Shown: positions 5,324-50,509, counted from the stretch's first letter. The stretch: 64,000 nt of DNA from Candidatus Limnocylindrales bacterium (GCA_035248345.1 DATFHO010000101.1:80407-144406), one strand, 5' to 3'. The notes: generated from the sequence alone by a model not told the origin. Numbers and translations: made by a program.

Positions 5324-7078
<1,755 letters not shown>

Positions 7079-7085
7079 GGCGGGC

Positions 7086-9209: not shown

Positions 9210-9245
9210 ACCCCTCTTGACAAGAGGGTTTGTCAATACCCCTTG
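9160..9245. promoter_or_regulatory. dnaG upstream region with two copies of TCTTGACAAG, a third TTGTCAA and a hairpin cctctt-GAC-aagagg
   Basis: gtcaagTCTTGACAAGccg ... ccTCTTGACAAGagggTTTGTCAAtac. TTGACA hexamers occur on both strands in the 196-bp interval between divergent dnaG and the BNR gene. Confidence 0.3.
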
Positions 9246-9405
9246 GGAGTATTCCGTCCGGCGCCGCCGGCGCCAACGGCTCTCACCGGTGGCCCAGACC
9301 AATTCCCGCAGGTATCGGTCATACGACCGATGACGCTCGCGCCTGCCCGGCGGAGCCTTCACGGAGAAGCGGCAGTGTCGCCGCCACGGTGGAGGCGCAA
9401 TTTCC

Positions 9406-14941: not shown

Positions 14942-14963
14942 TTCCAGGGCCGGCGGCGGCCCT

Positions 14964-32728: not shown

Positions 32729-32869
32729 CTGCTGCTGGGGTGGAACGCGAGGTCGGGGGTCGGGGTCGGGCGGCGTGAACCCGGGGTTTGTGCACCTGTC
32801 TTCCAAACCGTGCGTGCTAGCCTCATACATCCCCCGGCCGGTGTCAAGATGCGATGGAGGAACGCGACG

Positions 32870-33577
32870 ATGGGAACCCTCGACGGGCGCGTCGCGCTCA
32901 TAACCGGCGCGAGCCGCGGGATCGGCAGCGCGATCGCGCGCACGCTCGTGGACGACGGCGCGCACGTGGGGCTCGCGTCACGGAGCGGGAGCGACCTCGG
33001 CATTCCCGGAGCGTTCGCCCGGGCCTGCGACGTGCGGGACGCCGACGCCCTCGCGCAGATGGCGGATGCAACCGCGAACCGCTTCGGGGGCATCGACATC
33101 CTCGTCGTGAACGCCGGGGTCGGCGCGTACGGCCCCTTCCTCGAGCTGGATCCGGCGCACCTCGAGGAGATGATCGACGTCAACGTGAAGGGCGCGATCT
33201 ACGCGGCCCGAGCCGTGCTCCCCTACCTCCTTGAGAGCGACGCGGCGGACTTCGTGATGATTGCCAGCGAGGCGGGCCGCCGGGGCCTGCCCTTCGAGGC
33301 CGTGTACTGCGCATCGAAGTTCGCCCAGGTCGGGCTGACCGCCGCGCTCGATCATGAGCTGCGCGAGCACGGCGTGCGCTGCACGAACATCTGCCCCGGT
33401 GGCGTCGCGACGGACTTCGCGATGGGTCACGGCCGCACCCCGGACATGCCTGCGCTGGCGGGGATGATGGCGCCGCAGGACGTCGCCGATGCCGTGCAGT
33501 TCGTCGTGACCCGGCCGCGGACGCACCGGATCCTCGAGGTCGCGTTCCGCCCGGTCACCGAGGCCTCGTGGGGCTGA
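32870..33577 (+). CDS. SDR-family oxidoreductase
   Basis: MGTLDGRVALITGASRGIGSAIA and the catalytic YxxxK (YCASK). GGAGG lies 9 nt upstream. Confidence 0.75.
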   Translation: MGTLDGRVALITGASRGIGSAIARTLVDDGAHVGLASRSGSDLGIPGAFARACDVRDADALAQMADATANRFGGIDILVVNAGVGAYGPFLELDPAHLEEMIDVNVKGAIYAARAVLPYLLESDAADFVMIASEAGRRGLPFEAVYCASKFAQVGLTAALDHELREHGVRCTNICPGGVATDFAMGHGRTPDMPALAGMMAPQDVADAVQFVVTRPRTHRILEVAFRPVTEASWG

Positions 33578-36032: not shown

Positions 36033-37727
36033 ATGGCGCGGGGCAGGAACGGCCGCCCGCTGCTGCTCGGCGCATCGGCGCTGATCCTCGTCGGCGTCAT
36101 CGCTGCCGTGGCCACCGTCGCGGGCATCGCGCCGTGGCTGCCGGGCGCATCCGCGGAGGCCGTCCCGGTCCCGCACTTCGTGGACGAGACGAGCTCCTCC
36201 GGCCTCGCGTTCACCTCGGGCGGCGAGTTCACCTATGCGGTCGGTGGCGGCGTCGCGGTGTTCGACTGCAACGACGACGGCCGCCCGGACATCTACTTCG
36301 CCGGGGGCCAGGATCCGGCCGCGCTGTTCCGCAACGACAGCCCGATCGGTGGCGAGCTCCGGTTCACGCGACTCGCCGGCACGACGACCGACCTTGCGGC
36401 GGTCAACGGCGCCTATCCGATCGACATCGACGGCGACGGCCGCGTCGATCTTGCAGTCCTGCGCAACGGCGAGAACGTCGTCCTGCGGGGGCTGGGCGAC
36501 TGTCGGTTCGAGCGCGCGAACGAGCGGTGGGGTCTCGATGGGGGCGGCGAGCTGACCGAGGCATTCAGCGCGACGTGGGAGCGCGGCGCCACGTGGCCGA
36601 CGCTGGCGTTCGGGAACTACGTCGACCCCGCGCCGGTCGATCCGTCGAAGTGGTGCCAGCCGAACGTGCTGGTCCGCCCGGCGGCCCGCGGCGCGAGGTT
36701 CGCCACGCCGCTCGAGCTCAACCCGAGCTATTGCGCGCTGTCGATGCTCTTCAGCGACTGGGACGGCTCCGGCCGGACGGACCTGCGCGTCAGCAACGAC
36801 CAGCACTACTACCCGCCGACGCTCGGCGAGGAGCAGCTCTGGCGGGTCGAGCCCGGGGTTGCGCCCCGGCTGTACACGAGCAGCGACGGCTGGCAGGCGG
36901 TCCGGATCCAGGGCATGGGCATCGCAAGCCAGGACCTGACCGGTGACGGCCTGCCCGAGATCTACCTCACCAGCCAGGCAGCGAGCCGGCTGCAGACGCT
37001 CGCCAACGGCCCGGCGCAACCCGACTACGCCGACATCGGCGGCGCGCGGAAGGCGAACGTTGCGCAGCCGTTCGCGGGCGGCGAGCACCTGCCGTCGACG
37101 GCGTGGCACCCGCAGTTCGAGGACGTCAACAACGACGGTCGCTTCGACCTCTTCGTCTCGAAGGGCAACGTCACGACCCAGCCCGACTACGCCCAGAAGG
37201 ATCCAAGCAACCTCCTGCTCGGCCTGTCCGACGGCACGTTCCGGGAGGTCGCGGATGTCGCGGGCATCCTCTCGTTCGATCGCGGGCGCGGCGCTGCCCT
37301 CGCCGACTTCAACCTCGACGGCTGGCTCGACCTCGTCGAGGTCAACTACGGCGCACCGGTCCGGATCTGGCGCAGCGCGGGCGCGGTTGCCGCCGGCGGG
37401 AGCGCGGAGGCAGGGCATTGGGTCGGGGTTCGCGTCCGGCAGGCGGCGCCCAATGTCGACGCGATCGGGGCCGTGCTCGAGGTGCGCGTCGGCGGCCCGG
37501 ATGGTTCGGTCGTTCGGCGCGAGCTGACCATCGGGGGCGGGCACGCCGGCGGGCAGCTCGGCTGGGTCCATGTCGGCCTCGGTGACGCGACGAGCGCGGA
37601 GCTCCGCGTCCAGTGGCCCGATGGCACCGAAGGCCCGTGGCAATCGGTCCCGCTCGACACCTTCGCCATCATCGATCGAGATGCGGCCGCCGTGCAGCCC
37701 TGGACGCCGGGGACGCCCCTGCCCTGA
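36033..37727 (+). CDS. CRTAC1-family protein (FG-GAP/VCBS repeats + ASPIC/UnbV C-terminal domain) with N-terminal membrane anchor
   Basis: N-terminal TM (LLLGASALILVGVIAAVATVAGIA). Repeated Dx[DN]xDGxxD Ca-binding loops (CNDDGRPDIY, DIDGDGRVDL, DLTGDGLPEIY, NNDGRFDLF, NLDGWLDLV). C-terminal UnbV_ASPIC-like segment GHWVGVRVRQ...VGLGDATSAELRVQWPDG. Confidence 0.65.
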   Translation: MARGRNGRPLLLGASALILVGVIAAVATVAGIAPWLPGASAEAVPVPHFVDETSSSGLAFTSGGEFTYAVGGGVAVFDCNDDGRPDIYFAGGQDPAALFRNDSPIGGELRFTRLAGTTTDLAAVNGAYPIDIDGDGRVDLAVLRNGENVVLRGLGDCRFERANERWGLDGGGELTEAFSATWERGATWPTLAFGNYVDPAPVDPSKWCQPNVLVRPAARGARFATPLELNPSYCALSMLFSDWDGSGRTDLRVSNDQHYYPPTLGEEQLWRVEPGVAPRLYTSSDGWQAVRIQGMGIASQDLTGDGLPEIYLTSQAASRLQTLANGPAQPDYADIGGARKANVAQPFAGGEHLPSTAWHPQFEDVNNDGRFDLFVSKGNVTTQPDYAQKDPSNLLLGLSDGTFREVADVAGILSFDRGRGAALADFNLDGWLDLVEVNYGAPVRIWRSAGAVAAGGSAEAGHWVGVRVRQAAPNVDAIGAVLEVRVGGPDGSVVRRELTIGGGHAGGQLGWVHVGLGDATSAELRVQWPDGTEGPWQSVPLDTFAIIDRDAAAVQPWTPGTPLP

Positions 37728-37741
37728 CCGTCAGGCGGGCG

Positions 37742-39328
37742 TCAGGCGGGCGGCAGCACCGCGACGAGCAGCCAGCGATCGCCCGTGGCACGCCGAACCG
37801 CGAACACCTTGTCCAGCGGCGACTCCTGCGTGGCGATGACGGCGCCCGTGGCGTCGCGCGTCTGCACGACCTGCGTGCCCGTCATGTGGAAGCCGAGGCT
37901 GAACCCGTCCTGCTTGCCGAACGGGATGAGCAGCGAGACGGCGCCCTTGTCGAAGCGGTAGGTCGTCAGCACGGTCCGACCCGCTGCCTGTGCTGCGACC
38001 AGCCGCTCGTTCATCTCGGCGAGGCGGTCGCCGTGGTCGGACGCCGCGAGGAGCGAGCCGTCCGCGTGGAGCATCGCTTCGTTCTCGATGGCGAGGTTCT
38101 GCGCCAGCGTGATGAGCACGTCGTTGATGCCCGGGCCGGCGAGCGACGGGTCGAAGTCCGCGACGTCCTGCCCGACCGTGATCGGCGGCAGCGTTCCGGG
38201 GTCGACCTGGGTCGGGAGGCGATTCAGGACCTCGGCCGAGACCGGCAGCGTCGCGTTCCGCGCGGGCGTCCCGGCGAGGACCACGCCGCCGCCAACGAGA
38301 ACGACCGCGACCACCGCGGCGATGGCGGCACTCGCCCGACGTGCCGCACCCGCCGCGGCATTGCCGCCGGTGGCGATCCGCTCGACGAAGGCGCGAAGGC
38401 GGTCCGCCGCGGACTTCGGCTCGGGCAGGATCCGCTCGAGGAGCGGTCGGGCCGCGCAGACCACGACGAGGCCGGACAGGAGCCCGACCTTCGCCCCGAA
38501 CTCGGTCGTCTGCGGCGCGATCAGCAGCGTGCTCACGACGCCGACGAGGAGCCCGAACACCACGCGCCCGACGCGCCCGCCGGGCACCGTCTTCGGGTCG
38601 GTGATCATGAAGAACAGGAAGATGAGGATCTCCGGCGACGTCACGATGGAGCGCCAGAAGTCGACACCGCAGACGGGCGCGAACGACCAGCGGGTGACCA
38701 TGCAGTGCCCGGACGCGGCCAGGAGGCCGAGCCCGGCCGCAAGCGTGAGCCAGAACGTGGCCCCGAGGATCAGCAGGTGCAGGCGCCGCGTGATCAGCGT
38801 GCCACCGACCAGGATCACCGCGTACGCCAGGATCATCGCCGGGTTCGTCAGGGGCGCCCACCAGAAGTCCAGCGGCTCCACGCGCGCCGAGCCGAGGATC
38901 ACGAACGCCAGGACCAGCCCGAGGTTGGCCGGGTTGAACACGTGGGAGCCGCGGTACCGGATCACGTACTTCGAGAGCAGCGACAGCGCCGCGACCCCGG
39001 CGAACAGCCACCACGCATAGCTCGTCCAGTGGTCACCCGGCGCCGTGCCGACCACCCGCATGATCAGCGCCACGGCGCTGCCGGTGAGCATCGCGCTCGC
39101 GGGCCAGACGAGCTGCTTCGTCTGCCAGAACGTGATCCCGACCTCCAGGACGAAGCACGTGCCGATCGCGGCAACGATCTGCGGCACGCTCACCCAGAAC
39201 CCGAGCCCGACCTGGCCGAGCACATGGACGGTCAGGACGACCACCGCGACGTGCAGCCGCGGGTCGCGGACGTTCGGGAGGACGAGCGGGTACGTCCCGC
39301 GGCCGATCGTGAGCGTCCTCGCGGTCAT
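37742..39328 (-). CDS. RnfD/NqrB-family-like polytopic membrane protein with an additional ~190-aa C-terminal domain
   Basis: GSHVFNPANLGLVLAFVILG parallels the RnfD (QNPFNPAMIGYVVLL) motif. FFMITDPKT parallels FFILTDPVT. The canonical flavinylation site SGAT is replaced by VTSP. After the last TM (AAIAAVVAVVLVGGGVVLAG) there is a soluble extension. Confidence 0.5.
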   Translation of the reverse strand: MTARTLTIGRGTYPLVLPNVRDPRLHVAVVVLTVHVLGQVGLGFWVSVPQIVAAIGTCFVLEVGITFWQTKQLVWPASAMLTGSAVALIMRVVGTAPGDHWTSYAWWLFAGVAALSLLSKYVIRYRGSHVFNPANLGLVLAFVILGSARVEPLDFWWAPLTNPAMILAYAVILVGGTLITRRLHLLILGATFWLTLAAGLGLLAASGHCMVTRWSFAPVCGVDFWRSIVTSPEILIFLFFMITDPKTVPGGRVGRVVFGLLVGVVSTLLIAPQTTEFGAKVGLLSGLVVVCAARPLLERILPEPKSAADRLRAFVERIATGGNAAAGAARRASAAIAAVVAVVLVGGGVVLAGTPARNATLPVSAEVLNRLPTQVDPGTLPPITVGQDVADFDPSLAGPGINDVLITLAQNLAIENEAMLHADGSLLAASDHGDRLAEMNERLVAAQAAGRTVLTTYRFDKGAVSLLIPFGKQDGFSLGFHMTGTQVVQTRDATGAVIATQESPLDKVFAVRRATGDRWLLVAVLPPA

Positions 39329-39347
39329 GGTCGGGCATCATAGGTGC

Positions 39348-39974
39348 ATGGCACGAGACGAAGAACGAGTCGCGCGGGCGCAGCAGGACCCTATCGTCGG
39401 CGGGTTGCCCGATGTCCAGGGCATCGGCGTGGCAATGCGCCTGACGCCCGGTCTCGGCGTGCACCTCCGCGGCCTCGCGGACGAGGTGCTCGTCCACGAC
39501 TTCCCGGGCGCCACGCTCCGCCGTGACCAGCGCGAGATCCTGGCGACGGCGGTCTCTGCCGCGAACGACTGCTTCTTCTGCATGGACTCGCACGGCGCGT
39601 TCGTGGCCGCGCTCCTGGACAAGCACGGCGCGCACGAGCTCATGCCGCTGATCGACGTCGCGAAGGCGGGGTCATCGGACGGGTTCGATCCGAAGATGCA
39701 GGCGCTCCTGCACATCGCGCGGACGGTTCGGCGCGATGCGCTCGCGCTCACGGAGGGTGACGTCACGGCGGCGCACGAGGCGGGCGCCACCGAGGCGGAC
39801 GTGCAGCTCGCCGTGCTCATCGCGTCCGCGTTCTCCATGTACAACCGGCTCGTCGACGGGTTCCGCGCCCGCACCTCGCCGTCGACGGAGGCGTACCGGG
39901 AGCGCGCCGCCGAGATCGCCGACAACGGCTACAGCGCACCGTCCGGCCTCACGGCCGCACCGACGCGAGGCTGA
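39348..39974 (+). CDS. Carboxymuconolactone-decarboxylase (AhpD-like, peroxidase-related) family protein
   Basis: AhpD-core motif CFFCMDSHG, about 208 aa. Divergent from the RnfD-like gene with only ~19 bp between the start codons. Confidence 0.7.
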   Translation: MARDEERVARAQQDPIVGGLPDVQGIGVAMRLTPGLGVHLRGLADEVLVHDFPGATLRRDQREILATAVSAANDCFFCMDSHGAFVAALLDKHGAHELMPLIDVAKAGSSDGFDPKMQALLHIARTVRRDALALTEGDVTAAHEAGATEADVQLAVLIASAFSMYNRLVDGFRARTSPSTEAYRERAAEIADNGYSAPSGLTAAPTRG

Positions 39975-40063
39975 GGCCCGGCCGATCGGCGCGCGCTCGG
40001 AGGCGCCAATTCGTCGCCGGCCTCTCAGCCGATTCGAAGAAACGGCGGCGAGCATGGCTGCCA

Positions 40064-40420
40064 ATGAACCCATCGACTCGCCCGACCACCACGCGGGAGC
40101 GCGACCGCGCGCTGCAGCGCCTCCGTTCGATCACCGCCGGGATCGCCGTCCTCGGAACGGCCGCCACCGCCGGCTTCGGAGCGCTTGCGGCGGTCACGTG
40201 GTCCGGCTCCGCCGGTACCGCGGGCGATGACACCGCGGCTGCTGCCGATCCCACCGCGAACGCCTGGTTCACCAATGCCGATGAGGACTCGGATCTCCTG
40301 ACGGGCGCCGAGCAGTCGACCCCGGCACCCAGCGAAGCGGCCGCGCCGATCCAGCCGAATCCCACCCCGCTCGCAACGACGCGGAAGAAGCCCAGGGTCA
40401 CCAGCGGCGGTTCCGGGTGA
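40064..40420 (+). CDS. Small single-pass membrane protein with Ala/Thr/Pro-rich extracytoplasmic tail
   Basis: 118 aa. TM ITAGIAVLGTAATAGFGALAAV, then a low-complexity tail. Its stop overlaps the apbE GTG start (GTGA), suggesting translational coupling. Confidence 0.35.
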   Translation: MNPSTRPTTTRERDRALQRLRSITAGIAVLGTAATAGFGALAAVTWSGSAGTAGDDTAAAADPTANAWFTNADEDSDLLTGAEQSTPAPSEAAAPIQPNPTPLATTRKKPRVTSGGSG

Positions 40421-41382
40421 TCCGCTGGCGGGCGCTCGGGACGCACGTCGACCTGCTCGTCCATCGGGGCGATCACCGCGCCGCTCGCGCCGCTGTCGAG
40501 GCGGTGCTGGAGCGCGTCGATCGCACCTACAGCCGCTTTCGACCCGACAGCGAGCTCGTGGTGCTCAATGCCCGCGCCGGCACGACCGTCTCACTGAGCC
40601 CGCTGCTCGCCGACGCCCTCGGGGCGGCGATCCAGGCAGCGGGCCAGACGGATGGGCTGTGCGACCCGACGATCGGGCGCGCCCTGCTGCGGATCGGCTA
40701 CGACGCGGACTTCGCGACGGTCGCGACGGGCACCGCCGCCATCGAGCTGCGCATGGAGCGCGTCGCCGGCTGGCAGTCGCTTCGCTTCGACCCGGTCGCG
40801 CGCACGATCCGCGTCCCCGCCGGCGTGGAGCTGGACCTCGGCTCGACCGGCAAGGCGCTGGCCGCTGACCTCGCCGCGACTGCCGCCGCGGAGGCAATGG
40901 GTCGCGGTGGCGTGCTGGTGAGCCTCGGCGGTGACCTCGCGATCGCCGGTGACGTGCCCGAGGACGGCTGGCCGGTTCTCGCGGCGGACGACAGCAGCAT
41001 CGAGCCGCGGCGCGGTGGCGAGGTGATCGCCGTTCGCGGCGGCGCGATCGCGACATCGAGCACCACCGTGCGCACCTGGCGACGCGCGTCCGTTGTCGTG
41101 CATCACCTCATCGACCCGCGAACCGGGCTTCCTGCGCGAAGCCCATGGCGAACCGTGTCCGTGGCCGCGGCCACCTGTGTCGATGCCAACGCCGCCGCGA
41201 CCGCCGGGCTGATCCGCGGCGCGGACGCGCCTGCGTGGCTCGACGGCCTCGGGCTCGCTGCGCGGCTCGTCTCCACCGACGGCGACGTCATCCGCGTCGG
41301 TGGCTGGCCCGTGCCGGAGCCGGCGCGGGAGCGGGACCGATCTCGCGAGCACGACCCGGCCCGCGCAGGAGCGGCGGCATGA
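40417..41382 (+). CDS. apbE: ApbE-family FAD:protein FMN transferase
   Basis: 321 aa. ApbE hallmarks: SRFRPDSEL, the FAD-binding segment LDLGSTGKALAADL, and SLGGDLAIAG. Confidence 0.8.
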   Translation: MIRWRALGTHVDLLVHRGDHRAARAAVEAVLERVDRTYSRFRPDSELVVLNARAGTTVSLSPLLADALGAAIQAAGQTDGLCDPTIGRALLRIGYDADFATVATGTAAIELRMERVAGWQSLRFDPVARTIRVPAGVELDLGSTGKALAADLAATAAAEAMGRGGVLVSLGGDLAIAGDVPEDGWPVLAADDSSIEPRRGGEVIAVRGGAIATSSTTVRTWRRASVVVHHLIDPRTGLPARSPWRTVSVAAATCVDANAAATAGLIRGADAPAWLDGLGLAARLVSTDGDVIRVGGWPVPEPARERDRSREHDPARAGAAA

Positions 41383-41981
41383 GCACGCAGGTGCTGTGGT
41401 TCGCGACCCGGGGCTCGGGCATCGTCTCGATGCTCCTCTTCAGCCTCGTCGTCGTCCTCGGCATCCTCACGACGATGCGCTGGCAGTCCGCCGGTTGGCC
41501 GCGCTTCCTGACCGTCGAGCTCCACCGGACGACCTCGCTCCTGTCGGTGGCGTTCATCGTCGCCCACATCCTCACGTCGATCCTCGATCCGTTCGCGAAG
41601 CTCGGTATCGACGCGGCGCTGATCCCCTTTGCCTCGTCGTATCGACCGCTGTGGGTCGGCCTCGGCGTCCTGTCGATGGACATCGGGATCGCGGTCCTCG
41701 TCACGAGCCTGCTCAAGGCCCGGATCGGGCAGCGGGCCTGGCGCCTCGTCCACTGGCTCGCCTACGCGTCATGGCCGCTCGCGATCCTCCACACGATCGG
41801 GTCCGGGTCGGACAACGGCGCGCCGTGGATGTTCGCGCTCGACGTCGTGTGCATCGGCTCCGTCTGCCTCGCGCTCATCTGGCGGATCCTCGCGGCCCGC
41901 GGGCCGAACACCGACGCCCTCGAGGCCGTCGCAGGAGGCGTCCAGCGCGTCCAGCGCGTCCACCGCTCGACGCCGCGATGA
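41379..41981 (+). CDS. Ferric-reductase-like transmembrane domain (FRD/MsrQ-type, putative di-heme b) membrane protein
   Basis: ~200 aa, about 6 TM helices (my estimate). Conserved His residues in TM helices (ELHRTT, VAHILTS, LVHWLAY, ILHTIGS). ATG overlaps the apbE stop (ATGA). Confidence 0.6.
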   Translation: MSTQVLWFATRGSGIVSMLLFSLVVVLGILTTMRWQSAGWPRFLTVELHRTTSLLSVAFIVAHILTSILDPFAKLGIDAALIPFASSYRPLWVGLGVLSMDIGIAVLVTSLLKARIGQRAWRLVHWLAYASWPLAILHTIGSGSDNGAPWMFALDVVCIGSVCLALIWRILAARGPNTDALEAVAGGVQRVQRVHRSTPR

Positions 41982-43243
41982 ACGGCGCGCGGGTTCTCGC
42001 CGGGCCACCGCTCGCATCCGGAGCCGAACCGTTCGAGGACCACCGGGCACGCCTGGGGCCATTGCCCCGTGGCGGGCGGTCCGCCGTCATCCACGAGCTG
42101 GAGCAGAGCGGGCTCCTCGGCCGCGGTGGCGCCGGGTTCCCGGTCGGCCGCAAGTGGCGGTCCGTCGCCGAACGCTCGGATGGCCGCGGGGCGGTCGTGC
42201 TGGTCAACGGCGCCGAGGGCGAGCCGCTCTCGCACAAGGACCGCACCCTCCTCGCCCTCCGGCCCCACCTCGTCCTCGACGGCGCCCAGCTGGCGGCGGA
42301 CGCCGTCGGCGCGGACGAGGTCATCCTGTACGTGGGTGAGGCACACGACGGCGCCGTGGAGGCGCTCCAGCGTGCCGGCGCGGAGCGCATCGCGGCGCGC
42401 GCCGGGTTCCCCGTGCCGGTTCGGATCTCGCGCGCGCCGGATCGGTACGTCGCCGGCGAAGAATCGGCGGCCGTCCACTTCGTGAATGCCGGTGATGCGC
42501 GCCCCATCACCACGCCGCCGCGACCGTACGAGCGGGGTGTCGCGGGCCTGCCCACGCTGGTCCAGAACGTGGAGAGCCTCGCGCACGCGGCCCTCATCGC
42601 GCGCAGGGGCGCCGCCTGGTACCGCGAGGCCGGCCGGGGCGAGACGCGCGGCACGGCGGTCATCACGGTGACGGCCCCGGGCGGACGGCCTCGCGTTCGC
42701 GAGATCGAGCTTGGACAGACGATCGGTGAGGTCGCGGCCACGGACGTCGCCGGCGAGGCGGCGCCGAGGCTGGAAACGACGCAGGCGGTCCTCCTGGGCG
42801 GCTATTTCGGGCGATGGGTCGGCGCCGAGCGCGCATGGGACCTGCAGCTCGATCCCGCGCAGCTGCGCGCCGACGGCCTCGCGCTCGGGGCCGGCATCGT
42901 CGCCTTTCTGTCGAACGCCACGTGTCCCATCATCGCCACAGCCCGCATCGCGGAGTACATGGCGGCGCAGAGCGCGGCCCAATGCGGGCCGTGCGTCTTC
43001 GGGCTGCGCTCGATCGCCGACGCGATGGGCCGGCTGGCGCGGCTCGAAGCGCATCGAGACGACTGGGACAACGTCGAACGGTGGGCGGCGCAGGTCAGGA
43101 ATCGGGGCGCCTGCCGCCATCCCGACGGCGCCGTGGGCATGCTCGAGAGCGCCCTCATGACGTTCGACGGCGAGCTCGAGCGGCACTGGCGCACGAAGCG
43201 CTGCGCATTCGCGGCGATCGCGGGATCCGGCAAGGCGGCGTGA
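41978..43243 (+). CDS. NuoF-like (NADH-dehydrogenase 51-kDa-type) FMN/Fe-S flavoprotein
   Basis: SGLLGRGGAGFPVGRKW is the NuoF FMN-site glycine loop. C-terminal Cys motif CPIIATARIAEYMAAQSAAQCGPCVFG. ATGA overlap with the FRD gene. Confidence 0.65.
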   Translation: MNGARVLAGPPLASGAEPFEDHRARLGPLPRGGRSAVIHELEQSGLLGRGGAGFPVGRKWRSVAERSDGRGAVVLVNGAEGEPLSHKDRTLLALRPHLVLDGAQLAADAVGADEVILYVGEAHDGAVEALQRAGAERIAARAGFPVPVRISRAPDRYVAGEESAAVHFVNAGDARPITTPPRPYERGVAGLPTLVQNVESLAHAALIARRGAAWYREAGRGETRGTAVITVTAPGGRPRVREIELGQTIGEVAATDVAGEAAPRLETTQAVLLGGYFGRWVGAERAWDLQLDPAQLRADGLALGAGIVAFLSNATCPIIATARIAEYMAAQSAAQCGPCVFGLRSIADAMGRLARLEAHRDDWDNVERWAAQVRNRGACRHPDGAVGMLESALMTFDGELERHWRTKRCAFAAIAGSGKAA

Positions 43244-43488
43244 TGGCGACGGAGATCGCCCCTGCCCACGGCAGGCCACTGGCGAAGGCGGAGACGCGCC
43301 TCGAGGTCGATCGCATCCTGTGCGACGGATATGGCATGTGCGCCGAGCTCCTCCCGGAGCTCATCGAGCTCGATGATTGGGGCTATCCGATCGTCCACTC
43401 CCTGGTGCCGCGACGGCTCGAGGGGGTTGCCCGGAAGGCCGTCGAGGTCTGTCCGGTCCTTGCCCTGCGACTCCGCACGGGACGCTGA
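43243..43488 (+). CDS. Small ferredoxin (CxxYxxC...CP, 3Fe-4S/4Fe-4S single-cluster type)
   Basis: 81 aa. CDGYGMCAELLPE...VEVCPV. TGATG overlap with the NuoF-like gene. Confidence 0.65.
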   Translation: MATEIAPAHGRPLAKAETRLEVDRILCDGYGMCAELLPELIELDDWGYPIVHSLVPRRLEGVARKAVEVCPVLALRLRTGR

Positions 43489-43527
43489 GCGAGGCGCGAA
43501 TCGCGCGTCCTTGGCACGATTCCCGCC

Positions 43528-44925
43528 ATGACGACAACGACGAGCGCGCTCCAGGACCAGCTCCAGCGCCTGCGGGCCGAGATCAGCGGCCGGGTCATCG
43601 AACCTGCCGACCCGGACTACGACACGCTCCGCTCCGTGATGTACGGCGGGGTCGATCGGCATCCCGCCGCTGTCGTTCGCGTGGCGAACGTCGACGATGT
43701 TCGCGCCGTGATCGCCTTCGCCCGGGAAACCGGCGCGCAGCTCGCGATCCGCAGCGGCGGGCACAGCGCCAAGGGCGACAGCACGACCGAGGGCGGCATC
43801 GTCCTCGACCTGAGGGAACTCCGTGCGATCGACATCGACGTCGACGCGCGGACGGGCTGGTTCGAGACCGGCCTCACGGCCGCCGACGTGTCCCAGGCGG
43901 CTGCAGCGCATGGCCTCGCGATCGGCTTCGGCGACACCGGCTCGGTCGGCATCGGCGGGATCACGACAGGCGGCGGCATCGGCTATCTCGTGCGCAAGCA
44001 CGGCATGACGATCGACAACGTCCTGGCCGCGGACGTCGTGACGGCCGACGGCCAGCTCCTGCGAGCCGACGCGTCCACGAACCCGGACCTGTTCTGGGCG
44101 ATCCGTGGTGGCGGTGGCAACTTCGGCGTCGTCGTGCGCGTGCAGTACCGCCTCGTGGAGCTGCCCGGGATCGTGGGCGGCATGCTCTTCCTGCCGGCAA
44201 CCGCGGAGACGGTCGAGCGGTTCATCGCGCTGGCAGGCGAGGCACCGGAGGAGCTCTCGACGATCGCCAACGTGATGCCCTGCCCGCCGATGCCGATGGT
44301 GGACGCGGCGTGGCACGGCAAGCTCGTGATCTTCGGGCTCATGTGCTACGCCGGGCCGGCCGAGGAGGGCGCCAATGCGCTCCAGCCGTTCCGCGACCTT
44401 GCGAAGCTCGCTGGGCTCGACGCGCCGATCGCGGACCTGGTGAAGCCGATGACCTACCCGGAGATGTTCCCGCCCGAGGACCCCGACTACCACCCGCTCG
44501 CGGTGAGCCTGAACCTCATGCTCGATCGCGTCGATCGCGGGACCGCGGAGACGATCATGTCGTTCCTCGAGTCATCGGACGCCTCGCTTCGCGCTGCCCA
44601 GATCCGGGTGCTCGGCGGCGCGATGGCGCGCGTGCCGGTCGACGCCACCGCGTATGCCCATCGGGCCAGCCCGATCATGGTCAACATCGCCGTCTTCTAC
44701 ACGGACGAGGAGGACCGCAAGCGCCGGCTCGCCTGGGCGACGGACTTCTTCAACGCGATCCGCCAGGGCGACGAGGGCGCGTACGTCGGCTTCGTCGGTG
44801 ACGAGGGCGAGGCGCGCATCCACGCCGCGTACCCGGGCGCCACCTACCAGCACCTCGCCGAGGTCAAGCGCCGCTATGACCCGACGAACCTGTTCCGCCT
44901 GAACCAGAACATCCCGCCCGCCTGA
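43528..44925 (+). CDS. FAD-linked oxidase (PCMH-type FAD-binding domain + BBE-like C-terminus)
   Basis: AIRSGGHSAKGDS, GIGGITTGGGIGYLVRKHGMTIDNV, RGGGGNFGVV, and a C-terminal KRRYDPTNLFRLNQNIPP BBE motif. Confidence 0.8.
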   Translation: MTTTTSALQDQLQRLRAEISGRVIEPADPDYDTLRSVMYGGVDRHPAAVVRVANVDDVRAVIAFARETGAQLAIRSGGHSAKGDSTTEGGIVLDLRELRAIDIDVDARTGWFETGLTAADVSQAAAAHGLAIGFGDTGSVGIGGITTGGGIGYLVRKHGMTIDNVLAADVVTADGQLLRADASTNPDLFWAIRGGGGNFGVVVRVQYRLVELPGIVGGMLFLPATAETVERFIALAGEAPEELSTIANVMPCPPMPMVDAAWHGKLVIFGLMCYAGPAEEGANALQPFRDLAKLAGLDAPIADLVKPMTYPEMFPPEDPDYHPLAVSLNLMLDRVDRGTAETIMSFLESSDASLRAAQIRVLGGAMARVPVDATAYAHRASPIMVNIAVFYTDEEDRKRRLAWATDFFNAIRQGDEGAYVGFVGDEGEARIHAAYPGATYQHLAEVKRRYDPTNLFRLNQNIPPA

Positions 44926-44958
44926 CGGGGCGGCTCGGCGCGCGGCACAATCGGGCGC

Positions 44959-45225
44959 ATGCCCGACGGGATTCTCGGCTGGATCATCATCGGCCTGCTC
45001 GCAGGCTCGATCTCGGGCTGGTTCGTGCGCGGCACCCGCAGCGTCCAGGGTTGCCTGCCGACGATCGTCGTCGGCGTGCTGGGCGGCGTGATCGGCGGCT
45101 GGCTCGCCCAGCAGATGAACGGCCAGCCGGTGACCGGGTTCATCGGGGCGCTCGTCTTCGCGATCATCGGGTCGATGCTGGTGCGGATCGTGCTGAAATC
45201 CCTGGAGGGCGACCGCAAGCGCTGA
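44959..45225 (+). CDS. GlsB/YeaQ/YmgE-family small membrane stress protein
   Basis: 88 aa. GWIIIGLLAGSISGWFV...ALVFAIIGSMLV is typical of the transglycosylase-associated (GlsB) family. Confidence 0.7.
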   Translation: MPDGILGWIIIGLLAGSISGWFVRGTRSVQGCLPTIVVGVLGGVIGGWLAQQMNGQPVTGFIGALVFAIIGSMLVRIVLKSLEGDRKR

Positions 45226-45280
45226 GCCCCGATGTCCGGCGCGTTGTCGGGCGCGCTGCCGAGCTCGTTCTCCAGTCCGG

Positions 45281-46015
45281 TCAGCGCCAGTCGATCGTGA
45301 CCACCTCGACCGGCTCGGAGAACCCCTTCAGCAGCTCGCTGCGGGGTGCCGACGTCGGGTAGGCATCGCCCGCCGTCGCGACGCTCGCGACGATCTCGTT
45401 GCCGCCGGCGATCGAGGCGATCCGCGATGCCTCGTGGACGCCACGGCCGCGGAAGTTCTCGCCGACCTGGTTCGCGTCCGCGGCGTGGATCCCGATCCTG
45501 ATGGGCGGCGCGAAGCCTGCCTTCTGGCGGTGCTCGGCGAGCCGGCGCTGGATCGCCACGGCTGCCGCCACCGCCTGCTCCGGCGAGTCGAAGCCGACGA
45601 AGAAGCCGTCGCCGGTCGTCGAGATCTCCTTGCCCTGATGCGCGGTGAAGACCTCCCGGAGCGTGGCGTCGTGCCAGCGCAGCAGCGTGTCCCACGCTTC
45701 GTCGCCCATCACCTCGACCAGGTTGGTGGAACCGACGACGTCCGTGAACATGAAGGTCTTGAGGACGCGGCGCTTGGGCTCGGCCTTGCCACGGAGCTGC
45801 CACGGCAGGAGCTCGGCGACATCCTCGATCCAGATCGCCGCGGTCGGGCACGCGAAGGCAGCCTCGCGAACGAGCTCGTCCTCCACGCTGTCCGGATCGA
45901 CGACGTCGGCCTTCGCGAAGTCACCTCGGAGCCAGTCGAACGCCGTGGGCGCGATCGTGATGCAGTTGCCGGCACCGATGCATTTGTGCCGGTCGACGCC
46001 GACGCGCAGCGGCAT
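45281..46015 (-). CDS. Ferredoxin-like domain fused to class III adenylate/guanylate cyclase catalytic domain
   Basis: N-terminal VDRHKCIGAGNCITIAPTAFDW...AFACPTAAI is a CxxAxxC...CP cluster motif. C-terminal CHD: FMFTDVVGSTNL...TTGDGFFVGF...IRIGIHAADA...GRGVHEASRI. The start codon (46013-46015) overlaps the stop of the LAL regulator (46015-46017) by 1 nt. Confidence 0.7.
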   Translation of the reverse strand: MPLRVGVDRHKCIGAGNCITIAPTAFDWLRGDFAKADVVDPDSVEDELVREAAFACPTAAIWIEDVAELLPWQLRGKAEPKRRVLKTFMFTDVVGSTNLVEVMGDEAWDTLLRWHDATLREVFTAHQGKEISTTGDGFFVGFDSPEQAVAAAVAIQRRLAEHRQKAGFAPPIRIGIHAADANQVGENFRGRGVHEASRIASIAGGNEIVASVATAGDAYPTSAPRSELLKGFSEPVEVVTIDWR

Positions 46016-49000
46016 CAGCCGGCCCCCGCGGGTTGGGCGCCGCCTGAAGCCGCCACCAGGCCGGCGGTCCCGCCGAGGCCACGGAACGCGAGCGTCGTGG
46101 CCTCCGCCCGGCTCGACGCGCCGAGGCCGGCGTAGACGCGGGTCAGCCGCTGGGCGAGATCGGCCTCGGACATCCCGAGCGCCGCCGCCATCTCGCTGTT
46201 CGTCTGGCCTTCGGTCAGGAGCTTGGCGATGCGTCGATCCGTGTCGTCGAGCCCGCCCGCGCCGCTCGGCGCGGCGGGTTGCGTGGCTGCGGCGGCGCCG
46301 CCGGCAACCGCGGGCTCGAAGGCGCCCGCGAGGCCTACCAGCTCGCGACCGAGCGGGCTTCGGAGCCAGCGCACGCGGACGTGGTCATCAACCGTTGCCT
46401 GCGCGATCCGCGACAGCGTGAGGCGCAGCCAGTCGCGGACCTGCTCCTGCATGTCCGGCGGTGCGCCGGAGAGCACGCCGCGACTCGCGGACAGGACCGC
46501 CTCGAGGTGCACGTCCTCCGTGATCGCATCCTGGAGGGCCTGCATCACGGCAGCGCCTGCGGCTGCCGCAGCTTCCAGATCGCCGTGGGCCAGCGCAATC
46601 TCCGCCTTGGCGGCGTCCGCATATGCCGGCCATGGGCTGTGGCCGGGCAGCGTCGCCGCGATCGCGGTCGCCTGGTCCGCGGATTCCCGGGCCATCGCAA
46701 GGAGCGGCTCCGCGTCGATGTGTGTCCGGGCGGCAAGCCGTGCGCTGGTGAGCGCGACCCACGCCGCGGTCTCGCACCGAGCCGCTGCGCCTGCTCGCGA
46801 TGCGAGGAGCTGCGCCTGCTCGAAGTGACGGCGCATCCCGGCCACGTCGTCGGCGATCGCGCGGACCCTGCCGCGCATGAGCTCCAGCTGCCGGGTGCGC
46901 AGCGGAGTGAGCGCGGTGGCGGCCAGCGGCGCCGCGATATCGAGCCAGCGATCCGCGTCGGCGACCTCGCCGAGGTCGAGGTGCGTCAGCGCCACGCCGG
47001 CAGCGGCGCTGAACTCCGTCGACTGGTCGCCATCGATGCGCGCGGCGCGGTATGCCTCCTCGCCGCGGCTCAGCGCGAGATCCGGGACGACCTTGGCGCG
47101 CGCATACACGTGGACGCCCATGAGCAGGTGCAGCTCCTGGCGCGCGCGCTCGCTCTCGGTGACGAGGTCCTGCTGGCGCGCGATGACGCGCCGAATCTCC
47201 TCGAGGTGGCGCGCGGACGACGTCAGGTGGATCGTCGGGGCGTAGTTGAGATACGCCATCAGGATCACCGTTGACATCACGCCGGTGCGATCCCCGAGTC
47301 GCTCGTAGATCTCGAGCGCCCGCTCGCAGTGGTCGCGCGTCTCCATGACGATGGGCGCGATCGGTGTCTCGCGGAGGAGATCCTCGACGTCCTCGCCCGC
47401 GAGCACGCGCGTCGCGACGCCGAAGATCGCGCCGGCCCGCACCTGCTCGACGAACCACGCACGCACCTTGGAGACGGACATCGCACCGGCCTCGCGCTCG
47501 GCGGCGGCAAGGGCTCGCTCGTCCCCGAGCTCGCGGGCAAGCTCGATCGCCCGCTCGAACGCCGCCTCCGCCGCGTCGATGTCGACCTCGACACCGGACA
47601 CGCCGAACCCTTCGCCGATCGGCGTCTTCGTCAGCGCCTGGCCCAGCTCGAGCGTTGCCCGGAGCTCCGTGGCGCGATCGCCGAGCGCGGCTGCGCGGCC
47701 GATCACGCGTCGTGCCAGCTCGGCCGCCGCTTCCTCGTCGTGGGCCGCCCGGAATGCGGCGGCGCGCCGGACCTGCACGTCCAGCTCCAGCGTCGGGTCG
47801 CGCAATGCCTCCGCGAGCGCGCCGAGCTCGGCGAGCCCGTCGATGCGATCCGACGTCCGTCGCAACGCGGCGTACGCGTCGTCGCGCGTCGACAGCAGGA
47901 CGCGCCGCTCCGCGGGCGAGGACACCACCGGCAGCGCCGCGTCGACCAGCCGCAACGCCTCTTCCGGTGCGTTCGACCGGAGCGCCGCTGCCGCGGCCTC
48001 GATCGAGAACCGGGCAGCACGGGTGTTGTCGCCGGCCGAGAGCGCGTGCTGGGCGAGCATGGGCAGGCCCTCGGCGGGCGGCTCGCCGGCCTCGAGTAGC
48101 AGATCGACCACCCGACCGTGCACCTCGCGCCGGCGGGCATTGGACAGCCGCGACACGGCGAAGTCGCGGACCTGCTCGTGCGTGAACGTGTAGTCGGCCG
48201 CGTCACCCTGCGGGTGCGGCAGGAGGAGGCCGGCCTCGACGGCCGGTGCCAGCGCGGCCGCGATCCCGTCGCCGGTCCGTGCCGCGCCCGAGCCCGAGCC
48301 CGAGGCGACGCCGGAGCCCGCGGTCGACCCGGAGCCGATCGCGACGAGGTCGCGCACGCTGAAGCTCCGGCCAAGGACGCCCGCATCCCCGAGCAGCGCC
48401 AGGGCGTCGCCCGGCAGCCGGGCGGCACGTCGCGAGATGAGCGTGCGCACGGCCGACGGCACCAGCCGCGCGGCGTTCCGCCCGAGCCGCCATTCGCCGC
48501 CGGACTGCTGCAGCGTCCCGGCATCCCGATGCGCCTGCGCGAGCTCCTCGACGATGAACGGCACGCCCTCGGACTGGGCATGCATTGCTGCGATCGACTG
48601 GCCCTCGACCGGCGCGCCGAGCACCTGCTGGAGGAGCAGGCCCGTCTCCGTCGCGCCGAACCGCGCCACCCGCAACCGCCGGACGAGTCCCATCCGCTCC
48701 ATGTCGGCCAGGAAGTTCGTCGCCTCGACATTCTTCGCGAGCTCCACCTGGCGGAACGTCAGGAAGAGGAACACCGGCCGATCGGCGACGCTGCGAACGA
48801 CGTACCGGAGCATCCGGAGGGTGTCGTCGTCGGCCCACTGCACGTCATCGAGCAGCAGCGCGATCGGCTTGACGCCCGCGAGCTCCTGGATCGCGATCCC
48901 GGCGAGGTCGAACGTCCGCAGGAGCTTCGCGTCAGCCGAGAGCTGCTCGAAGCCCGGCTCGTCGCGTCCGGCAAGCGCTCCGGCGACTCGGCGAACCGCG

Positions 49001-49374
49001 GATTCCGCGCGGGTGCCGACGGCGAGCTCGCGAAGCGCGCCGTTTCCGAACACCGAGCGCGCGACCAGGAACGGCCCGCGGATCTCCTCGTCGGCAGTGA
49101 TCGCGACGGTGGTGAAGCCCGCCGCCTCGGCCATCTCGGCGGCTGCGACCAGCAGCCGGGTCTTGCCGATGCCGGGCTCGCCTTCGAGGGTGACCGCGGC
49201 GAGCCGAGACTTCGCTTCGCGGATCCCGTGCTCGATCGCCTGGAGCTCAGTGCTGCGACCGACGATCGATCCGGTCGCGCGCCGCAGCTGCACCGACAGG
49301 GAGCACTGGGGCTGGACCAGCGGGTCCAGCGCCTCGCCATCGAGGAGGCGCACGGGTCCAGCTTCTGCAACCAT
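46015..49374 (-). CDS. LAL-type regulator (AAA ATPase + TPR-like region + C-terminal LuxR HTH)
   Basis: P-loop EGEPGIGKTRLL and Walker B LLLDDVQWADDDT. A long helical repeat region. C-terminal DDTDRRIAKLLTEGQTNSEMAAALGMSEADLAQRL LuxR HTH. Start chosen at MVAEAGPVRLL (ATG 49374). Confidence 0.75.
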   Translation of the reverse strand: MVAEAGPVRLLDGEALDPLVQPQCSLSVQLRRATGSIVGRSTELQAIEHGIREAKSRLAAVTLEGEPGIGKTRLLVAAAEMAEAAGFTTVAITADEEIRGPFLVARSVFGNGALRELAVGTRAESAVRRVAGALAGRDEPGFEQLSADAKLLRTFDLAGIAIQELAGVKPIALLLDDVQWADDDTLRMLRYVVRSVADRPVFLFLTFRQVELAKNVEATNFLADMERMGLVRRLRVARFGATETGLLLQQVLGAPVEGQSIAAMHAQSEGVPFIVEELAQAHRDAGTLQQSGGEWRLGRNAARLVPSAVRTLISRRAARLPGDALALLGDAGVLGRSFSVRDLVAIGSGSTAGSGVASGSGSGAARTGDGIAAALAPAVEAGLLLPHPQGDAADYTFTHEQVRDFAVSRLSNARRREVHGRVVDLLLEAGEPPAEGLPMLAQHALSAGDNTRAARFSIEAAAAALRSNAPEEALRLVDAALPVVSSPAERRVLLSTRDDAYAALRRTSDRIDGLAELGALAEALRDPTLELDVQVRRAAAFRAAHDEEAAAELARRVIGRAAALGDRATELRATLELGQALTKTPIGEGFGVSGVEVDIDAAEAAFERAIELARELGDERALAAAEREAGAMSVSKVRAWFVEQVRAGAIFGVATRVLAGEDVEDLLRETPIAPIVMETRDHCERALEIYERLGDRTGVMSTVILMAYLNYAPTIHLTSSARHLEEIRRVIARQQDLVTESERARQELHLLMGVHVYARAKVVPDLALSRGEEAYRAARIDGDQSTEFSAAAGVALTHLDLGEVADADRWLDIAAPLAATALTPLRTRQLELMRGRVRAIADDVAGMRRHFEQAQLLASRAGAAARCETAAWVALTSARLAARTHIDAEPLLAMARESADQATAIAATLPGHSPWPAYADAAKAEIALAHGDLEAAAAAGAAVMQALQDAITEDVHLEAVLSASRGVLSGAPPDMQEQVRDWLRLTLSRIAQATVDDHVRVRWLRSPLGRELVGLAGAFEPAVAGGAAAATQPAAPSGAGGLDDTDRRIAKLLTEGQTNSEMAAALGMSEADLAQRLTRVYAGLGASSRAEATTLAFRGLGGTAGLVAASGGAQPAGAG

Positions 49375-49384
49375 CGGGCCGATT

Positions 49385-50509
49385 ATGCGCGAGCACGAGG
49401 CGAACGCGGTCGACATCCATCTCGACGCCGACGGCGAAAGCCGGCTGCATCGCGCGCTGCGCGGGTGCTGGCAGCCCGTCTGCCGCGTTGCGGACCTCGG
49501 CGACAAGCCCATTCCGGTGATGCTGCTCGAGGAGCAGCTCGTCGTCGTCCGCCTCGGGAACGAGATCGCGTGCTTCCCGGACCTGTGCGTCCACCGCGGC
49601 ACGGCGCTGTCGCTTGGCTGGATCGACGACGGGTCCCAGCCGGCCCCTGACGGCTCGGCCACGCTCGGCGAGCCGTGCCTCGTGTGCCCGTACCACGGCT
49701 GGAGCTACGACCGGCGCGGCGTGGTCCGGCGCATACCAGCGGTCCACGGCCGGGCCATCCCGAATCGCGCTCGCGTGACCCGCTACGCGACCGCAGAGGC
49801 GCTCGGCCTCGTGTGGGTGCTGCTCGACCCCGGCCCGGGCGGGTGGGAGCAGCCGAGCGCCGCGTATCCCCTGCCCCGGGCAGACGGGTGGTGGGACCGC
49901 GAGGGCTTCCGGACGATCCCCATCGAGACGTACGACTGGGCGTGCTCGGCGGCGCGGCGCGTGGAGAACTTCGTGGACTTCAGCCACTTTCCGTGGGTCC
50001 ATCCGGACGTCCTCGGCGATCGATCGAAGCCGCTGTCGCCCGACCACGAGGTCATCGACGATGGCACGACGATCTCGTTCGACATCGCGCTCGAGGAGCC
50101 CCAGGCGTCGGTCAAGGGCGATGTTGCGCCGGGCGTGAAGGTGCAGCGCGATCCGACGACGTACACGCTCCACCTCCCGCTCTCGGTGACGCTCGACCAG
50201 CGCCTGCCGCCATCATCGGAACGGCCCGACGGCAACCGGTTCATCCTCTTCCTGGCCGTCTCACCGCTCACGGCGCGGCGCTGTCGCTCGTTCACGTGGA
50301 ACGCGCGGACGTACAACCTCGATCCGTCGGCGGACACGGAGCTCGCCTCGTTCCAGGCGCTCATCCTCGACCAGGACCGCCCGATCGCGGAATCGCAGCG
50401 CCCGGAAGCGCTGCCCGTCGACCTCTCGCAGGAGCTCCACATCGCCGGCCCGGACAAGGCATCGATCCAGTACCGGCGCCGCCTGGCCGAGCTCGCCGCA
50501 GGCGGCTGA
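49385..50509 (+). CDS. Rieske [2Fe-2S] non-heme-iron oxygenase alpha-subunit-like (VanA/ring-hydroxylating family)
   Basis: Rieske motif CVHRGTALSLGW...CPYHGWSY. C-terminal catalytic domain with His residues (FSHFPWVHPD). Only ~10 bp separate it from the divergent LAL start. Confidence 0.7.
   Translation: MREHEANAVDIHLDADGESRLHRALRGCWQPVCRVADLGDKPIPVMLLEEQLVVVRLGNEIACFPDLCVHRGTALSLGWIDDGSQPAPDGSATLGEPCLVCPYHGWSYDRRGVVRRIPAVHGRAIPNRARVTRYATAEALGLVWVLLDPGPGGWEQPSAAYPLPRADGWWDREGFRTIPIETYDWACSAARRVENFVDFSHFPWVHPDVLGDRSKPLSPDHEVIDDGTTISFDIALEEPQASVKGDVAPGVKVQRDPTTYTLHLPLSVTLDQRLPPSSERPDGNRFILFLAVSPLTARRCRSFTWNARTYNLDPSADTELASFQALILDQDRPIAESQRPEALPVDLSQELHIAGPDKASIQYRRRLAELAAGG

Follow-up and report, generated by a model that had tools for sequence, protein, structure and literature searches.

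Extracytoplasmic electron transfer in monoderm soil bacteria (Chloroflexota, Dormiibacterota, Actinomycetota) is poorly understood, and MsrQ-like flavinylation systems, although catalogued by comparative genomics, have never been characterised. A 64,000-nucleotide stretch of DNA from a Candidatus Limnocylindrales bacterium (GCA_035248345.1, DATFHO010000101.1:80407-144406; G+C ~71%), hereafter the window, raises the question of how NADH in the cytoplasm could be connected to an acceptor outside the cell, and which protein could carry a flavin at the outer end of such a path. Positions 40064-43488 of the window encode a small single-pass membrane protein, the flavin mononucleotide (FMN) transferase ApbE, a membrane protein of the ferric reductase domain (FRD)/MsrQ type, a NuoF-like flavoprotein and a ferredoxin. 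An initial annotation read these genes as a compact electron-export chain. We find the case evenly balanced that they form an NADH-driven electron-export module of the MsrQ-like/FRD type in which the small protein serves as the flavin-loaded acceptor.

Gene order and conservation of the module

The five genes lie on one strand and are joined by overlapping stop/start junctions, just as the initial annotation had described (Table 1). In all of them, including the small one (GC3, the G+C content of third codon positions, 0.83), GC3 exceeds the G+C content of the other codon positions. The identities proposed for the products also stood up: Pfam searches with ApbE, Ferric_reduct, Complex1_51K, NADH_4Fe-4S and Fer4_15 all gave matches, which together with cofactor motifs identify genes 2-5, and the first gene encodes a single-pass membrane protein. 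A scan of positions 39200-45400 for sigma-70 promoters and intrinsic terminators found none, such a scan being uninformative for this phylum.

We then scanned one genome per GTDB species and obtained 26 loci, mostly from Limnocylindrales and other Chloroflexota and from Dormiibacterota, with one Gaiellales metagenome-assembled genome. The order FRD-NuoF-like-ferredoxin, with tight spacing, was kept in 23 of the 24 closer loci and across three phyla, as expected if the gene order is shared by relatives. ApbE was encoded directly upstream of the FRD in about 16 of these 24 loci, and independent Joint Genome Institute (JGI) gene calls for two loci (L027 and L031) gave the same order, with the small open reading frame (ORF) included. 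Fusions of the FRD or the NuoF-like protein with the product of a neighbouring gene were sought among the best 120 homologues of each and none was found; all stand alone.

Table 1. Coordinates of the module, of features within the small protein and of two neighbouring genes (positions in the window; aa, amino acids)
Feature	Length	Coordinates	Strand	Remarks
Small protein	118 aa	40064-40420	+	GTGA overlap with ApbE gene
Transmembrane helix of small protein	~residues 23-45	40130-40198	+	Hydropathy and AlphaFold2 (AF2) helix; predicted N-in/C-out
C-terminal motif VTSGGSG of small protein		40397-40417	+	Invariant in 11 close homologues
Ser117 of small protein		40412-40414	+	Last Ser of VTSGGSG; proposed FMN phosphoester site (putative attachment)
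ApbE	321 aa	40417-41382	+	PF02424; ATGA overlap with FRD gene
FRD/MsrQ-like membrane protein	200 aa	41379-41981	+	PF01794; ATGA overlap with NuoF-like gene
NuoF-like flavoprotein	421 aa	41978-43243	+	PF01512 + PF10589; TGATG overlap (1 nt) with ferredoxin gene
Single-cluster ferredoxin	81 aa	43243-43488	+	PF13459
BBE-type FAD (flavin adenine dinucleotide) oxidase	465 aa	43528-44925	+	PF01565 + PF08031; 40 nt downstream of ferredoxin gene
Polytopic membrane protein	528 aa	37742-39328	-	Weak NqrB/RnfD/RnfE similarity (PF03116, E 2.6e-4, below gathering cutoff)

The predicted electron path from NADH to the heme protein

The candidate entry point for electrons is the NuoF-like protein, which matches PF01512 (E 7e-33) and PF10589 (E 1.5e-16) and aligns end to end with NDUFV1/Nqo1 (E ~1e-46). 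Its FMN loop (GRGGAGFPVGRKW), its NADH site (NGAEGEP...KDR) and its AGEES motif align to those of NDUFV1 and are conserved in 21 orthologues, and the FMN- and NADH-binding motifs are thus intact on alignment. Unlike NuoF, NDUFV1 and Nqo1, the protein has no NuoE partner in the cluster and stands alone, no SLBB domain was detected in it by Pfam, and it scores far short of equivalog cutoffs (211 bits against TIGR01959, for which the cutoff is 559). Furthermore, the first Cys of the N3 cluster is replaced by Ala (SAAQCGPC vs ESCGQCTPC). Since five Cys are nonetheless invariant in the 21 orthologues (C316, C336, C339, C379 and C409), the upstream Cys316 may replace the missing N3 ligand; Cys409, the fifth, is near the C-terminus and outside the N3-like set. 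Judged by its sequence, the protein is NuoF-like and not NuoF.

The ferredoxin matches Fer4_15 (E 1e-11) through the motif C-D-G-Y-G-M-C...C-P (C-x2-Y-x2-C...C-P). Its three Cys are conserved, and the position of the fourth ligand is Tyr, His or Arg in 21 orthologues. In the general pattern C-x2-X-x2-C...C-P, a Cys at X gives a 4Fe-4S cluster and a residue other than Cys gives a 3Fe-4S cluster. The pattern therefore points to a single-cluster ferredoxin of the [3Fe-4S] type.

The FRD protein matches Ferric_reduct with 32.1 bits (cutoff 28), and the four transmembrane His on which its assignment depends are present: His49, His63, His125 and His138 show no variation among 47 homologues and form pairs 13-14 residues apart on two transmembrane helices, which fits the pattern of a predicted bis-heme b protein. 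E. coli MsrQ (YedZ), NOX and STEAP share this domain and this spacing, and a nicotinamide/flavin donor in the cytoplasm supplies the electrons that they conduct through the membrane. Foldseek searches with the AF2 model of the FRD gave STEAP2, the NOX5 transmembrane domain, DUOX1 and STEAP1 as top matches (E 0.012-0.4); a profile search of PDB sequences gave nothing at E up to 1, and known structures are linked to the FRD through Pfam and the fold search. In contrast to E. coli MsrQ, NOX and STEAP, hydropathy and the AF2 model (predicted local distance difference test score, pLDDT, 67) place five helices in the window FRD, not the six of the core of ferric-reductase-domain cytochromes. The PF01794 match of the window FRD already begins at residue 13. 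In E. coli MsrQ it begins only at residue 47, behind a first transmembrane helix at residues 13-31; this helix, the first of the six-helix core, is therefore missing from the FRD. The helix of the small protein, predicted to have the same N-in orientation, may stand in for this missing helix, and it would probably pack against the FRD at the position of the first helix of MsrQ. Charged loops put the C-terminus of the FRD and its loops 34-44 and 112-120 inside, and the inner heme site is therefore predicted to consist of His49/His125, the outer one of His63/His138. The FRD also has a conserved loop with the sequence DPF...IPFASSYRP. An inner and outer arrangement of heme His is also that of NOX.

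Taken together, domains, motifs and synteny agree with the proposed chain from NADH through FMN and Fe-S to ferredoxin, a di-heme FRD and the outside. In this scheme NADH would reduce FMN bound non-covalently in the stand-alone NuoF-like protein. Electrons would leave that protein by way of its Fe-S cluster and move to the 3-Cys ferredoxin, then to the cytoplasmic-side heme (His49/His125) and on to the outer heme (His63/His138) of the five-helix FRD. The donor would thus be an Fe-S flavoprotein with a ferredoxin, and not a fused FNR-like domain or a soluble flavin reductase as in MsrQ, NOX and STEAP. We consider it likely that the operon encodes such an NADH-fed FRD transmembrane electron conduit.

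The similarity of the FRD to MsrQ also allows a repair function, in which the FRD would be an MsrQ orthologue that feeds an MsrP-like molybdoenzyme encoded elsewhere, with the NuoF-like protein and ferredoxin in place of Fre. Homologues of the FRD are indeed named 'sulfoxide reductase heme-binding subunit YedZ' in databases, and the E. coli msrPQ genes adjoin the OmpR-type hprRS genes, just as an OmpR-type response regulator and a histidine kinase are encoded directly 3' of the ferredoxin, on the same strand, in about 10 related loci. However, neither the examined flanks in the window nor the Pfam-annotated loci L027 and L031 hold an MsrP/Oxidored_molyb gene, a profile-profile comparison of the FRD with E. 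coli MsrQ gave a weak match (probability 14%), and E. coli MsrQ has just three of the four His positions along with six helices. Furthermore, a repair function accounts for neither ApbE nor the small protein, and we regard it as very improbable.

The small protein and its C-terminal motif

No Pfam or NCBIfam family matches the small protein, which shares 100% identity with a hypothetical protein of locus tag VJ850_14195. Its N-terminus is rich in Arg (RERDRALQRLR) and is followed by a single Gly/Ala-rich transmembrane helix and by a tail of ~70 residues rich in Thr, Ala, Ser, Gly and Pro; AF2 predicts a single helix at residues 10-45 with coil elsewhere, and no FMN-binding or other folded domain. 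In 22 of the 22 loci with both an FRD gene and sequence upstream of it, a corresponding ORF of ~100-140 aa was present; it immediately precedes ApbE, or the FRD if ApbE is not adjacent. The 22 proteins share the N-terminal consensus R-D-R-A-h-x-R-L-R-x-h-T. Their tails are of low complexity and cannot be aligned between clades, yet all 22 end in [ST]-G-G-S, sometimes followed by one Gly. Because the terminus is fixed although the linker is unalignable, the C-terminal motif appears to be under selection. As a background, a stricter version of the pattern occurred at the ends of 20 of 4,523 stop-to-stop ORFs in the loci; 16 of these 20 were the syntenic gene, which leaves 4 of 4,523 (~0.1%) as non-syntenic matches.

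When 1.84 billion representative proteins were searched with a profile, the family grew to 171 clusters at 50% identity. Among the best 150 representatives, 130 terminate in [ST]-G-[GAS]-S plus 0-2 residues, and most of the remaining 20 look like fragments. In a logo of the 130, counted back from the last residue of the motif (position 0), Ser at 0, Gly at -2 and Thr or Ser at -3 occur in every sequence (130/130 each), and position -1 is Gly in 124, Ala in 3 and Ser in 3. Further upstream, position -4 is Thr or Ser, position -5 Val or Ala, and position -6 mostly His (89), Gln (23) or Arg (12), with Lys occurring as well. The three natural Gly-to-Ala variants at -1 (TGAS/SGAS) reproduce the canonical [ST]GA[ST] of ApbE substrates. 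Two distant members ending in T-G-A-S were found by sequence alone, and both are followed by ApbE, in L030 by ApbE and in L031 by ApbE, FRD, NuoF-like protein, ferredoxin, response regulator and histidine kinase in that order.

ApbE canonically attaches FMN to the final residue of D-x-x-[S/T]-G-A-[S/T]. A tag of 7 residues of this kind is enough for the enzyme, both in vitro and in vivo, and modification was most effective with the tag at the end of a protein (PMC12052999). Mutagenesis of the tag showed that a change of Asp to Ala at -6 has a minor effect, that Ser is accepted and that a change of Ala to Val leaves ~50% flavinylation (PMC12052999). In FMN_red proteins the predicted flavinylation sites are on an unstructured C-terminal extension, and the purified proteins are flavinylated in a manner that requires the Ser/Thr at the predicted site (PMC11334425). 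The tail motif, T-S-G-G-S in the window, agrees with the canonical motif at -3, -2 and 0. Like known ApbE substrates (the FMN_bind proteins NqrC, RnfG and PplA, FMN_red proteins and the engineered Flavin-tag), the small protein thus has a Ser/Thr that ends an [ST]-G-(A/G)-[ST] motif and is encoded beside apbE, and, as in FMN_red substrates, the candidate site is on an unstructured C-terminal extension. Unlike known substrates, it would present this site on a transmembrane helix and a disordered linker that has no flavin-binding fold.

Other candidate targets were sought close by. FMN_bind (PF04205) was absent from the operon proteins, from the flanking genes tested and from the Pfam-annotated loci L027 and L031. 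A scan of the likely coding ORFs of the window for [DNE]-x-x-[ST]-G-[AG]-[ST] gave two matches only, one antisense to the BBE-type oxidase gene and one in ORF 31506-32903. The initial annotation had seen no obvious flavinylated acceptor in the operon; the family-wide C-terminal [ST]GGS of the small protein, which resembles an ApbE site, argues otherwise. We propose the small protein as the acceptor because its tail motif is near-canonical, ApbE is adjacent, an FMN_bind gene is missing and terminal tags have a published precedent. By sequence, we give this assignment about even weight.

If the assignment is correct, ApbE would load FMN as a phosphoester onto the last Ser of the ...H/R-V-T-S-G-G-S terminus, and the result would be a flavin tethered to a flexible, membrane-anchored arm of ~70 residues. 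The tethered FMN would dock on the outer face of the FRD, take electrons from the outer heme and pass them on to acceptors outside, for example Fe(III), O2, quinones/humics or enzymes of the envelope. As a shuttle of this kind, the flavin could connect acceptors in the envelope with the outer heme of a split FRD of five plus one helices, and the swinging arm could reach acceptors up to tens of nanometres away.

Two further termini were noted in the course of this analysis. In a metagenome protein of 106 aa (P0378) the tail motif is tandemly duplicated at the end (...RTSSGGSHATSGASG). An unrelated-looking protein with a hydrophobic segment, ending ...NSSSGSSG, is encoded ~6 kb downstream of the module in L003 (15220-15837).

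ApbE and the orientation of the tail

The window ApbE matches PF02424 with E 1e-46 over positions 1-257 of 266 and keeps the motifs ATSS, HHLIDPRTGLP and DANAAATA. Alignment to the ApbE structures 1vrm and 4xdt showed that A-T-S-(G/S), HH-(I/L)-(I/L)-DP-x-TG-x-P and D-A-x-A-x-(S/A)-T are conserved. By these criteria of sequence it is a protein with the fold and the catalytic and Mg/FAD-binding motifs of FAD:protein FMN transferases.

The initial annotation had taken this ApbE to be extracytoplasmic, an assumption that the gene itself does not support. Start position, hydropathy and alignment gave no signal peptide, lipobox or transmembrane segment in the protein. Position 40417 is the first in-frame start after the preceding stop, and residue 3 of the product aligns to residue 22 of the Thermotoga maritima ApbE (1vrm), so that the protein begins at the start of the mature domain. 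All orthologues are likewise devoid of a signal peptide and begin W-x-A-L-G-T. Since the window ApbE starts at the mature domain, as do its orthologues, it is predicted to be cytosolic.

The small protein is predicted to face the other way. Across 124 family representatives the mean net charge was +3.65 on the N-terminal flank of the helix and -1.19 on the C-terminal flank, and the N-flank was the more positive in 123 of the 124. By the positive-inside rule the topology is therefore predicted to be N-in/C-out, with the tail outside. The tails of these representatives have a mean length of 70 residues, 69% of them Thr, Ala, Ser, Gly or Pro.

Two ways of placing ApbE or its product outside were considered and set aside. 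A programmed frameshift that fuses the small protein to ApbE, and thereby anchors ApbE, was rejected since the junction varies among loci: the two genes overlap by 4 nt in many loci and are adjacent in L003, L010 and L019, and gaps of 28 nt and 92 nt separate them in L020 and L031, respectively. Nor was a slippery heptamer present. Export of a pre-flavinylated small protein by the twin-arginine translocation (Tat) system is not a general explanation because twin Arg residues are limited to some clades; the consensus of the N-region is R-x-R (RLRS in the window).

Points against the proposal and competing readings

Several observations weigh against an electron-export module with a flavin-loaded small protein. 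The signal-less ApbE is hard to reconcile with a tail that is predicted to be outside. ApbE is not adjacent in about 7 loci, in which the small protein is retained. The tail motif departs from the canonical motif at two positions, with Gly for Ala at -1 and His, Gln or Arg for Asp at -6 (H-[VA]-[TS]-[TS]-G-G-S vs D-x-x-[ST]-G-A-[ST]). The FRD model is of modest confidence (pLDDT 67). Finally, in L005 (5555-11735) a NuoF-like/ferredoxin pair occurs without an FRD in a formate-dehydrogenase-like cluster. Because the context of this pair has no FRD, the two proteins may be a reusable NADH/ferredoxin module.

Both the loci without an adjacent ApbE and the deviating motif would be accommodated if the conduit worked as described and the small protein were only structural, a detached first helix or anchor of the FRD, with the target of ApbE, for example an FMN_bind protein, encoded elsewhere. 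In that case the C-terminal motif would have another role, such as docking. The absence of the first MsrQ helix from the FRD and the matching orientation of the small-protein helix fit a structural role. However, such a role does not explain why a tail of ~70 residues that is otherwise free to vary should close with an invariant G-G-S. It also sits poorly with the position of ApbE, which is coupled to the small gene, or within ~90 nt of it, in most loci, distant family members included, and with the lack of an FMN_bind gene or of a canonical motif in coding frame in the 64-kb window and examined flanks. We think a purely structural small protein unlikely.

The conflict between ApbE and the tail would disappear if the flavin-bearing tail were cytoplasmic. 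The tethered FMN would then stand between the ferredoxin/NuoF-like module and the inner heme, in the position of the FAD in NOX and STEAP or of the flavin that Fre delivers to E. coli MsrQ. A flavin at the inner face is the characteristic electron donor of FRD-domain proteins, the tail carries a net charge of +1.4 over its last 15 residues, and no ApbE orthologue has an export signal. Pairs of a cytosolic ApbE and a cytosolic substrate are known, such as that of Klebsiella fumarate reductase (PMC12052999). Against a cytoplasmic tail stand the helix-flank charges, which are N-in/C-out in all but one of the 124 representatives, and the apparent redundancy of a flavin relay beside the ferredoxin. 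Spacers rich in Thr, Ser, Pro and Ala are, moreover, typical of extracytoplasmic linkers in monoderm bacteria. We judge this arrangement improbable.

An outward-facing, flavin-loaded tail could still be reconciled with the signal-less ApbE in either of two speculative ways. ApbE might attach the flavin in the cytosol, after which the unfolded, FMN-bearing tail would be threaded through the membrane; cytosolic loading followed by translocation would explain why the site is at the extreme C-terminus of a disordered segment, and there would therefore be no need for extracytoplasmic FAD. Alternatively, ApbE itself might be exported by an unconventional route. Our suggestion that the family is a natural "flavin-tag", a terminal Ser with ApbE-attached FMN that is loaded in the cytosol, is accordingly a tentative one, which we hold to be somewhat short of probable.

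Neighbouring genes and variant loci

A BBE-type oxidase is encoded beside the module or within a few kb of it in seven loci (the window, L001, L006, L013, L015, L021 and L027), in varying orientation relative to the module. Its best NCBIfam matches are bagremycin/ferroverdin oxygenases, far under their cutoffs, and no signal peptide was seen by eye in the window protein. We treat it as a loosely associated neighbour and do not count it as part of the module.

Upstream of the module, a CMD/AhpD-like gene and the divergent gene for the 528-aa membrane protein are not conserved neighbours in related loci. The latter gene is ~700 nt upstream of the small-protein gene and ~1 kb from ApbE, with the CMD/AhpD-like gene in between, and its product has a C-terminal part of ~180 residues past the last helix. 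It was considered as a target of ApbE and rejected: it has no [ST]G[AG][ST] motif, a sub-cutoff Pfam score and no match to PDB sequences, and it is not syntenic. An FG-GAP/ASPIC-UnbV repeat protein further upstream (36033-37727, +) and a 1,215-aa AAA_16 + LuxR(GerE)-type regulator downstream (46015-49662, -) are likewise not conserved with the module. The downstream gene at 45281-46015 (-) encodes an N-terminal single-cluster ferredoxin (Fer4_13/Fer4_15, C-x2-A-x2-C...C-P) fused to a class III cyclase (PF00211), which could be a redox-sensing adenylate/guanylate cyclase.

The genes for a response regulator and histidine kinase that follow the ferredoxin in other loci, for example at 2428-4418 in L002 and at 8507-10381 in L031, are absent from the window. 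In the Gaiellales (Actinomycetota) contig L019 there are two paralogous modules, at 12751-15469 (-) and 6049-9421 (+). One copy has ApbE and ferredoxin; the other has only the small protein (...AVSGGS), the FRD and the NuoF-like protein, without ApbE, and this second copy is adjoined by a response regulator. The NuoF-like/ferredoxin pair of L005 is flanked on one side by a NuoE-NuoF fusion (2Fe-2S_thioredx + Complex1_51K + SLBB + NADH_4Fe-4S) and on the other by a NuoG/formate-dehydrogenase-like protein (Fer2_4, Fer4, Molybdop_Fe4S4).

Relation to known systems

The initial annotation had held this combination of genes to be undescribed, which is not the case. Méheust et al. (2021, eLife, PMC8238504) already listed 1,797 MsrQ-like flavinylation clusters, mostly from Actinobacteria, and in 31 of them the NAD-binding domain that is normally fused gives way to a NuoF-like protein (PF10589); NAD(P)H was proposed as the cytosolic donor of these systems. 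The present operon resembles them in its adjacent, overlapping genes for PF01794 and PF02424 proteins, and it resembles the NuoF-like sub-type in its PF10589 protein and in the proposed flow from NAD(P)H to the outside. Our literature search found no experimental data on this sub-type.

The operon also differs from the published clusters in several respects. Its ApbE is without a signal peptide, its 3-Cys ferredoxin is a constant member, and its hosts are mainly Chloroflexota and Dormiibacterota. Furthermore, the published MsrQ-like clusters typically pair apbE with an FMN_bind gene (PMC8238504), whereas here a tail protein devoid of any recognised domain takes its place. The survey dropped ApbE and FMN_bind genes for which no signal peptide was predicted (PMC8238504), and since the present family combines a signal-less ApbE with the lack of an FMN_bind gene, it would have been left outside the operational set of that study. 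Thus, the type of system was catalogued in 2021, and the small protein appears to be a new, minimal candidate family of ApbE substrates for which Pfam and NCBIfam have no model.

The locus offers a compact and fully specified set of four redox parts and ApbE, which could lend itself to reconstitution. If its tail is flavinylated, surveys that demand FMN_bind or a signal-bearing ApbE have missed this type of cluster. The combination of a cytosolic-looking ApbE with a tail predicted to face outward raises the question of where and when exported proteins are flavinylated. The tail would be a natural counterpart of the engineered Flavin-tag and, if the proposal is true, the small protein would be the first ApbE substrate without a flavin-binding fold; the definition of an ApbE substrate would then no longer be confined to folded FMN-binding domains and would take in a bare peptide at a protein end.

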